The position numbers and the translations under genes are program-made. From Octopus sinensis (Eukaryota): a DNA stretch of 64,000 nucleotides. Below the pieces are notes generated by a model, which saw nothing but the letters and a program-made list of their open reading frames with translations, did not search any database and was not told the origin of the DNA. Location of the stretch: assembly GCF_006345805.1 (NCBI RefSeq), contig NC_043005.1, positions 41,850,001 through 41,914,000 of the forward strand. The letters are read 5' to 3'. Shown here piece by piece: positions 7,025 through 8,699 of this stretch (its first letter is position 1; every line of letters starts with the position of its first letter).

Positions 7025-7087
<63 letters not shown>

Positions 7088-7099
7088 GTACATACATCA

Positions 7100-7670
7100 A
7101 TGACTGGATGCATCTGGACACGTCTTCAGTGATGTGCCTGGTCTCATCGGGTGTTTCGGGTCTTTCAGCATCATACACCTTCCTCCTATCCGACCCCAGC
7201 TTGTGTCCAGATGGCCAGCTAGCTACTCCATGGCTCTCTTCTTTTGATCCACAACCATCTTGAGGCCCTCTCTGCTGCATCAGTGGTACTGCAGATGGCC
7301 TTCCTCCTTCTCACTCCATCGAAGCCCAAACTGCTGAAGGCTCTGGTCACGGAACGGGCTGCGAAACCCCTGCATCCTACCTCCACTGGGAGACACCTCG
7401 TTCTTCAACCAGCTCGCTGGCAGTCACGGACCTGACCCGCGCGCTTGGAGGGCTTTCTCTCAAAAGCTTCTTCCAGGTGATCTTCCAATGTGACAGTCAG
7501 CTTCAGCAGCACCCCTTGCTTGGTAGACTCAGACACGATGACAGTGTCTAGTCGCAGGGTGGTGACCGCAATGTGGCCAGAGAACTCCAGCTGATGCTCA
7601 AGATCCACCACCAGCTGCCACTCTCTTGCTGTTAGGATGCCCGCTGATGTTTTTTCTGGCAGGGGTGCTG
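7100..7670 (-). mobile_element. 3' end of RLE-type non-LTR retrotransposon (HERO/NeSL-like)
   Basis: WQLVVDLEHQLEF..HIAVTTLRLDTV...LLKLTVTLED...FERK (ORF 7405-7833), then LPVEVGCRGF...AERASRWLWIKR, stop near 7219-7221; structured 3' UTR. Confidence 0.85.
7111..7213 (-). ncRNA. Putative pseudoknotted hammerhead-like RNA structure in LINE 3' UTR
   Basis: Minus strand: CAUCUGGACAC..GGGUC..GGUGUA-UGAUG..GACCC-GAAA-CACC..CAUCA-CUGAAGA-C-GUGUCCAGAUG. Confidence 0.5.
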
Positions 7671-7745
7671 TAACATATCTGTAACATATCGACGTACCGA
7701 ACATAGTGTGTGTGTGTGTTGTGTGAGTGTGTATAGTAAAATAAT

Positions 7746-7952: not shown

Positions 7953-8573
7953 GGTGTCCCAAATGTCTCTGATGGGTTTCGAATCTTAATAACCTCCTGA
8001 ACTTTACAAATAAATGTATGAAACTTTGTCACAATATAAAGAACATAATGGAAATTAATATGCGCAAGTTAAATTTTGCGATACTACTACATCAAATATG
8101 AAAAATGACATCGCTTAAATGCCACCCATTTTCGACTTCGCACGCCTGTGCTCTTTCCAAAACTTGCACCATAACACCCTCAAGAGTTTCAGATCCCACT
8201 TCTCTGATTTCTCTGTTGATGTCCTCTTTCAGTTGCTCCAGGGTCTCCGGTTTGTTGACGTAGACCTCTCTTTCATGTATCTATGACTGAGACCATTTTG
8301 CGTCCGGCCATTCAAAGTAAATCTCACACATGGTTCCAGCAAGATGGGGGCAACTGCTCATGCCGCAAGAGAAACAATGCAGTTGTTACAGCAGTGCTTT
8401 CGAGATAGAATAATCTCCCGCTACGGCAATGTCAACTGGCTTTCACGTTCCCCAGACTTGACTAGCCCGGATTTTTCTTGTGGGGATATTTGAATGAGAG
8501 GTTTTATGACAACAAGCCGGAGACCCTGGTGCAACTGAAGGAGAACATCAATAGAAATATTTGGCACACCCTG
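7950..8573. mobile_element. Internally deleted/rearranged Tc1-mariner element (DD37D-like)
   Basis: TIRs cagggtgtcccaaat / atttggcacaccctg; WLSRSPDLTSPDF.LWGYL motif on + (~8437-8495); internal inverted copy of the transposase 3' part (8225-8275 vs 8495-8555). Confidence 0.8.
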
Positions 8574-8699
8574 TGTATATATAAAATTTCATATTCGGCT
8601 AGACAACCTAGATTAAAGCTCGTCTACATCATTCAGCTACCTGGTGTCAACAACAGCATGGAGATATTTGGCACTGAATTTTTTTGTGTCTATGCAGAT

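Follow-up and report, generated by a model that had tools for sequence, protein, structure and literature searches.

The 64,000-nucleotide stretch of Octopus sinensis contig NC_043005.1 analysed here, referred to below as the window, contains on its minus strand the remnant of a LINE reading frame and, beginning 5 nt past the stop of this broken frame, a series of short strands resembling the core of a hammerhead ribozyme. Hammerheads are defined by the elements CUGANGA, GAAA and NUH, and their types I to III are circular permutations of the three strands, here called blocks C, G and S, that carry them. In the window the blocks run S-G-C, and the question raised by the locus is whether this arrangement is the trace of a self-cleaving RNA, how such an RNA would be built, and what it would do for its host element. 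An earlier note on this DNA had listed a closing helix (7213-7203/7121-7111), GGGUC (7196-7192), GGUG-UA-UGAUG (7179-7169), GACCC-GAAA-CACC (7162-7150) and CAUCA-CUGAAGA (7134-7123), all of which are present on the minus strand at these positions. It offered two interpretations, a hammerhead of new topology with a split stem II and a defined cleavage site, or a ribozyme-derived structure recognized by the reverse transcriptase (RT) of the LINE. Our parse of the locus is given in Table 1.

Table 1. Features of the LINE fragment and of its hammerhead-like motif in the window.
Feature	Window coordinates	Strand	Basis
Decayed, 5'-truncated 3' fragment of an RLE-type (HERO-like) LINE, family A	7083..7678	-	Sequence comparison with own-genome copies
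C-terminal restriction-like endonuclease part of the ORF, with one internal in-frame stop; TAG end at 7221-7219	7219..7678	-	
P1 5' strand (closing helix); 7202 mismatched in the window copy	7202..7213	-	
Remnant of the P2 hairpin 5' arm, including the GGGUC of the earlier note	7192..7201	-	
Site of the 19-nt deletion, which removed the P2 3' arm, the true stem II 5' strand with G10.1 and the first part of the interaction helix	7187..7188	-	
Predicted k-turn, GA of the non-bulged strand	7181..7182	-	
Block S: stem III 5' strand, GUA triplet and stem I 5' strand; predicted cut 7174/7173	7169..7180	-	
Block G: stem II 3' strand, GAAA and stem III 3' strand	7149..7162	-	
Predicted k-turn, bulged strand (3-nt bulge and GA)	7144..7148	-	
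Stem I-II interaction helix, 3' strand; partner deleted in the window copy	7137..7141	-	
Stem I 3' strand and CUGAAGA core	7123..7134	-	
P1 3' strand, beginning right after A9	7111..7122	-	
Element 3' tail, without poly(A), running into a (TA)n microsatellite	7083..7110	-	

A search of the same genome with the window copy returned at least 39 other matches with 74 to 91% identity, and the set used for this family (family A) comprised 40 matches, 30 of which were kept as loci. Their alignment displays a 19-nt gap that is private to the window copy, the segment being kept in 28 of the 29 other family A copies. The deleted nucleotides correspond to the 3' arm of the P2 hairpin, another copy of GGGUC, and the first part of an additional helix. 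In family A the stem II partner of GACCC is this deleted GGGUC; the P2 5' arm ends in the GGGUC that remains in the window, which is therefore a look-alike. The proposal of a split stem II was correct, while the strand assigned to it was not. P2, the stem I-II interaction helix and the k-turn had been overlooked because the window copy carries this deletion. Own-genome matches starting at query positions 145-148 were considered as traces of cutting and rejected, as they too reflect the 19-nt deletion. Taken alone, the window copy folds no better than its shuffles in single-sequence folding (z = -1.21), and no hammerhead model appears among the 79 Rfam matches up to E 10 in the window region. 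Family A is old, with a strict pattern of all elements passed by one of its 30 copies, and the window copy itself is likely inactive and a decayed example of the motif. At the 5' junction of the LINE fragment an 11-bp direct repeat is found (window 7668-7689), and the minus strand at 7970-8600 carries a broken reading frame whose motifs we take to resemble the C-terminus of a Tc1/mariner transposase.

The host element was identified through the protein of a sister copy (P0001, L005), which is 87% identical to fish ORFs of approximately 990 aa with an RT domain, and whose endonuclease part is 63-67% identical to the Tetraodon proteins AAN12398/BAC82599 and the Takifugu protein BAC82598, which are presumably Zebulon, HEROTn and HEROFr. 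Close full-length relatives possess the RVT_1 domain, and protein alignment places a CCHC knuckle ahead of the PD...E motif of a restriction-like endonuclease (RLE), giving the single ORF with RT, CCHC knuckle and C-terminal RLE that is a trait of the HERO clade. In a C-terminal protein tree built without outgroups, the Tetraodon and Takifugu proteins, whose HERO names we assume, nest with the window's family. HERO is described as one of the RLE clades in three reports (PMC4640811, PMC7650587, PMC9004415). The host is thus, on its protein sequence, likely a member of the HERO clade, in agreement with the HERO-like affiliation it had been given at the outset. The same genome harbors a second, young family (family B), which has 39% protein identity to the window's family and the same motif layout in quite different letters. 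The protein of the window's family is 87% identical to that of fish elements (P0004, L081), compared with approximately 39-47% for its other own-genome relatives, and a horizontal transfer of this family is possible.

The conservation of the core was scrutinized in relatives that had been chosen by two ORF peptide patterns only (metagenome scan), the best 79 of 261 confirmed relatives being analysed. GUH, GAAA and CUGAnGA follow each other in this order, together with stems I and III, in 55 of these best 79 loci, compared with 1 of 1580 shuffled sequences and none of the 79 reverse strands. The elements that define a hammerhead are thus present, and all 55 parsed loci have them as S-G-C, the only order searched, and not in the circular-type orders CGS, GSC or SCG. 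Among the loci without a core call, nine lie on contigs that end too early and 15 fail; eight of these 15 match when at most two substitutions are allowed (32 of 600 shuffles do so), and seven of the 79 have no core even then. One relative with 50% protein identity (L152) shows no trace of the motif after its ORF and may mark a lineage without it.

The letters that the search left free follow the same pattern as in active ribozymes. The cleavage triplet is GUU in 23, GUC in 19, GUA in 13 and GUG in none of the loci, H17 never being G, and any base is found at N7 (U in 19, C in 9, A in 5 and G in 5 of 38 sequences). A free N7 together with a non-G H17 is the pattern of catalytic hammerheads. 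In a MAFFT alignment, 97.8% and 98.5% of the cells of stems I and III are paired, with double changes in five of five and three of five pairs, respectively, and the G10.1-C11.1 pair next to GAAA is G-C in 32, G-U in four and mismatched in two of 38 sequences, its partner strand coming from upstream. Rfam detected nothing at gathering score in 14 motif-bearing loci, and a family-A-specific and hence narrow pattern had no matches in viral contigs. We consider it almost certain that the RNA structure is real.

A plain SGC hammerhead, with stem II contiguous to CUGAnGA, was evaluated and rejected, four contiguous pairs being reached in only two of the 55 loci. Instead of being followed directly, or after one or two extra nucleotides, by the stem II 5' strand, A9 enters P1. 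Sequence comparison gives the order in the fold as P1, P2, stem II 5' strand, interaction helix, S, G, CUGAnGA and P1, with no linkers at the points where A9 passes into P1, the P1 5' strand into the P2 hairpin, and P2 into G10.1. This arrangement was evaluated on 42 representatives (distinct sequences with less than 85% identity). In 32 of them stem II, P2 and P1 all form their first four pairs with zero linker, compared with 1-6 of 42 when one linker is shifted and 14 of 1260 when the upstream sequence is shuffled. The linker shifts (1,1,0) and (1,0,1), which score 27 and 28 of 42, are not controls because they only trim the first pair of the same helices.

The helices are also supported by covariation. 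In a MAFFT alignment made from sequence only, covering 39 of the 42 representatives (two truncated and one doubtful sequence were omitted) and with region limits taken from our own parse, 87.6% of the cells are paired, compared with 61.7% after shuffling, and covariation amounts to 0.68, compared with 0.22 for shuffled and at most 0.16 for slid structures. Double changes occur in all six helices, but a count of changes on both sides is in itself non-discriminating, as 50 of 500 shuffles reach it. Mapped on the protein tree (38 of the 42 representatives), changes on the two sides of a pair coincide with a mean of 0.86 versus 0.37, and 22 of 26 pairs exceed the 95th percentile of the null, with the registers of stem II, P1 and P2 in this test, as in the 38-sequence parse, having been fitted to pairing. 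Relatives thus display both the conserved core and the covarying helices by which the earlier note had proposed to check its reading.

Two further elements join the outer parts of the fold. In 32 of 38 sequences the outer strands of stems I and II are connected by an interaction helix of at least 5 bp, compared with 12% of shuffles. A k-turn consensus, that is a paired helix, a 3-nt bulge and tandem G-A/A-G pairs, is found after stem III and before the interaction helix in 31 of 38 sequences, compared with 96 of 7600 shuffles. Its bulge is always 3 nt long, bulge lengths of 1, 2, 4 and 5 giving 1, 0, 0 and 0 matches; in family B a one-sided bulge takes the place of the k-turn. From this geometry we infer that P1 on P2 and stem II on the core would be the two stacks of a four-way junction, which would hold A9 beside G10.1. 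What is new in this motif is the interruption of the CUGAnGA block, which the predicted four-way junction opens without linkers between A9 and G10.1, together with the predicted k-turn past stem III, the covariation of all six helices and the autonomous LINE as host.

The strand order, which had also been thought to be new, is not: S-G-C corresponds to the published type-SGC permutation, which was shown to cleave (Eckert et al. 2023, PMC10085705). That report found SGC hammerheads, including HRIMA-1, only in metatranscriptomes and in none of the genomes of known organisms, and it assumed block C to be uninterrupted. In its alignment a single purine separates stem II from the interaction helix, and A9 is often followed by a bulged U, so that a bulge at this place is tolerated (PMC10085705). 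The LINE motif, compared with that description, agrees in block order, core and short stem I-II linker, and its interaction helix likewise starts one purine past the 5' strand of stem II and extends up to the 3' strand of stem I. It differs in having the stem II 5' strand and the interaction strand at its 5' end, block C split at A9/G10.1 by P1 and P2, a k-turn consensus joining stem III to the interaction helix, and a genomic, autonomous LINE as its host. Of the features of type SGC, the S-G-C order and the helix of the stem I and II outer strands are present and the uninterrupted block C is not; since block C is split by P1 and P2, the motif would work like an SGC hammerhead and is not filed as a plain member. 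Because the same interaction helix and the A9 bulge are seen in the SGC alignment, it can be viewed as an SGC hammerhead re-opened at A9/G10.1 and re-closed by two zero-linker helices.

Traces of cleavage were sought in family B with a pattern demanding foreign bases just 5' of the predicted cut. It yielded 13 matches, of which nine are independent insertions whose first base is the one that follows GUC (in two of them an additional C matches) and four are local mutations. The same design applied at control sites -9/-10, +10 and +35 gave 1, 0 and 1 true starts. For nine of 11 true starts to fall on one of four sites P = 1.3e-4, and from the background density 1e-4 to 2e-3. The comparison covers three control sites only, and anchors were counted for one of these, +35, with 966 compared with 718 at the cut. 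The copies start at the very bond for which the cut had been predicted from the window, and they make the alternative of a non-cutting RT-recognition structure unlikely. In an unbiased family B sample of 90 copies, taken from the first 100 among 310 matches, two start at the cut, none starts 2-39 nt upstream of it, and 88 cross it cleanly, which would also be the outcome with an uncut template. A dedicated search for family B copies ending at the cut gave three matches and none of this kind; one 19-nt duplication and one 4-nt insertion among the same three matches have their joints at the cut (this search had no control). In the small and old family of the window, the cut-start test gave one match, which is not a cut start. 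Altogether, the ribozyme very probably self-cleaves after GUH.

Several individual copies deserve mention. Upstream of the cut-start copies L296 and L306 lies further sequence of the element, an inverted piece of the tail in one and an internal piece of the ORF in the other, as if the RT had jumped from the cut end. At L151:972-1244 a fragment ends one base past the predicted cut, and at L094:1 the upstream partial copy of a contig begins one base after it, each being a single case.

Forty places match the 5' UTR of family B and 35 of them reach its start; all 35 continue upstream into the element's own 3' tail via one invariant junction. After duplicates were collapsed, 21 independent tandem events remained, with upstream overhangs of approximately 8, 8, 27, 30, 57, 133, 139, 141, 160, 181, 245, 283, 285, 325, 344, 371, 382, 429, 490, 503 and 985 nt. 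The cut lies approximately 121 nt from the junction: 16 of the 21 events extend beyond it, 12 contain the whole upstream ribozyme, and none starts there. Of the 90 family B copies in the sample described above, 74 have their 3' end at -6 to +1 relative to the junction, with no poly(A). At L061 the divergence between the two repeats is 0.3%, compared with 3.8% relative to other loci, and 17 of 18 rare alleles are common to both. The shared-allele test as a whole is mixed, the own repeat being the closest in only five of 14 tandem loci and no closer than the median at L193, L195 and L203. Among the best 79 of 261 metagenome loci, 11 have the start of a next ORF downstream, and five more have the tail upstream of the ORF; assembly collapse may shape such contigs, yet the junction must exist in reads. 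No tandem of the window's own family was seen in its own genome. Bouneau et al. in 2003 reportedly described a Tetraodon element, counted here with the HERO clade, 'with tandem structure'.

Family B also includes internally deleted units of 0.6-1.4 kb (L162, L163, L167, L175, L182, L200 and L201), which keep the 5' UTR, the ribozyme and the tandem junction and, judged by this content, are likely non-autonomous, retrozyme-like mini-elements. The deletion joint of the L162 type was found in contigs of three sequencing runs; the four contig sets analysed reveal neither RNA ends nor cleavage and are given no weight as evidence for the ribozyme, and the runs listed include no RNA data set with the element. 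On contig C18, at approximately 3.8-5.2 Mb, a single family B insertion with a 371-nt overhang is present many times (L170, L171, L174, L176, L177, L180, L181 and L187), likely multiplied by segmental duplication. In the 5' UTR there are between three and five small hairpins, many of them preceded by GTGAC, whose loops are rich in purines and of the GGAAAGAC / GGAGAGAC / GGAACAG type (L087:100-263, L094:88-236, L116:2800-2925, L131:2795-2990, L136:2480-2640, L141:140-289, and the start of the family B unit in L061). These hairpins are conserved across distant families, and a role as a protein-binding, translation or promoter signal is possible.

The reading that we favor, with a probability of roughly two in three, is that the 3' UTR ribozyme of HERO-like LINEs would cleave after GUH and trim tandem transcripts to unit length, the ends being rejoined or kept paired so that the RT would run round past its own start. 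A master copy with an upstream partial repeat and ribozyme would give an RNA running from cut to cut, cleaved at GUH in vivo, and the two RNA ends would rebuild the cleaved ribozyme via P1, stems I and III and the interaction helix. The ends would then be ligated, as for retrozymes, either by the ribozyme itself or by a host RtcB-type ligase, or be bridged by an RT jump. Target-primed reverse transcription would start at the tail, approximately 121 nt downstream of the cut, and usually cross the joint; a processive RT would pass its start point again and rebuild the partial tandem, whereas one falling off an unsealed nick would leave copies of 121 nt. The template of the RT would accordingly be, with good probability, a circular or nicked-circular RNA. 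With less assurance, we lean towards the wider view that a whole clade of autonomous LINEs moves in this way, with a hammerhead of new topology, bent by a k-turn and with its core rebuilt across the four-way junction, that both cuts and rejoins, an RT that starts internally and rolls round, and apparent 5' and 3' ends that are the RT start site on a circle.

The chief rival holds that cleavage would do no more than release the element's 5' end from an upstream read-through transcript, as the HDV-type ribozyme of R2 does, or dispose of surplus RNA, with linear and mostly uncut tandem templates and an inherited tandem. The 88 of 90 copies that cross the cut and the mixed outcome of the shared-allele test are in line with it, as are the nine short copies starting at the cut, which a linear 3' product would give as well. 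A linear RNA from the upstream cut would produce an overhang of 121 nt, and this length is seen in none of the 21 events, 16 of which are longer. Under a linear scheme overhangs can only shrink, yet tandems are present in distant families (the 11 plus five loci mentioned above), and the duplication whose joint lies at the cut implies that the RT made use of a free 3' end. We regard this explanation as unlikely.

It would be still more surprising if the fold were ribozyme-derived, no longer catalytic, and retained in the 3' UTR as the structure to which the RT attaches when it begins target-primed reverse transcription. R2-group proteins recognize their RNA at the 3' UTR, which is where the fold is located; the RT starts a short and fixed distance downstream, and a contiguous stem II is lacking (the two of 55 loci with 4 bp). 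Yet across 42 distinct sequences the catalytic core is invariant with N7 free and H17 non-G, and copies begin with nucleotide precision at the scissile bond; by the time the RT reaches this point, it has already stripped away the strands that pair there. A role in RT binding can coexist with cleavage. That the tandems arose without the ribozyme, from new copies targeting the 5' ends of old ones, would suit RLE elements, which are often site-specific (PMC4640811), and those tandem pairs that are no more alike than unrelated copies, but this is already largely refuted and very improbable, given the tail upstream of every copy with a 5' UTR start (in two with only about 8 nt of it), the unrelated sites at which most copies insert, and the rare alleles shared by the L061 repeats.

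The proposed cycle of ribozyme cutting and RT passage round the joint has partial counterparts in other elements. In Penelope-like elements a truncated copy likewise precedes a full-length copy, with the ribozyme in the pseudo-LTR repeat (PMC8557442). They differ in belonging to another RT clade, in having a GIY-YIG instead of a restriction-like endonuclease, and in their hammerheads, which are of the minimal type I (PMC7229834). Non-LTR retrozymes provide the closest parallel in mechanism, as their hammerhead cuts tandem transcripts to monomers, which are circularized and from which, as has been proposed, the RT would make tandem cDNA (Cervera and de la Pena 2020, PMC7229834). As described there, retrozymes are small, non-autonomous and of type I, whereas the LINE studied here has a 3.7-kb unit with its own RT ORF. 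R2 and other LINEs also use a self-cleaving RNA that frees a non-LTR element from a longer transcript (PMC13725137, PMC7650587). Those ribozymes are HDV-like or twister and are located at the 5' end, whereas here a hammerhead is located in the 3' UTR and would act via the tandem. A literature search, with subscription papers and Repbase Reports mostly outside its scope, found no ribozyme for HERO, and within the same scope neither a hammerhead in the 3' UTR of HERO or RLE LINEs nor an insertion of a four-way junction into a hammerhead core.

The motif is, to judge from the comparisons made here, a split-core SGC hammerhead in a LINE clade for which the literature searched holds no ribozyme report. 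It extends the hammerhead architecture beyond the six three-block permutations, in that a helical junction can make up for a break of the catalytic strand at A9/G10.1, and it places a non-circularly permuted ribozyme in ordinary eukaryotic genomic DNA, in hundreds of copies that were missed by Rfam models. For the HERO-like LINEs it provides a testable cause for their partial-tandem structure. It also suggests that circular templates can be entered internally by an R2-group RT, a point of relevance to gene insertion tools built on retrotransposons.
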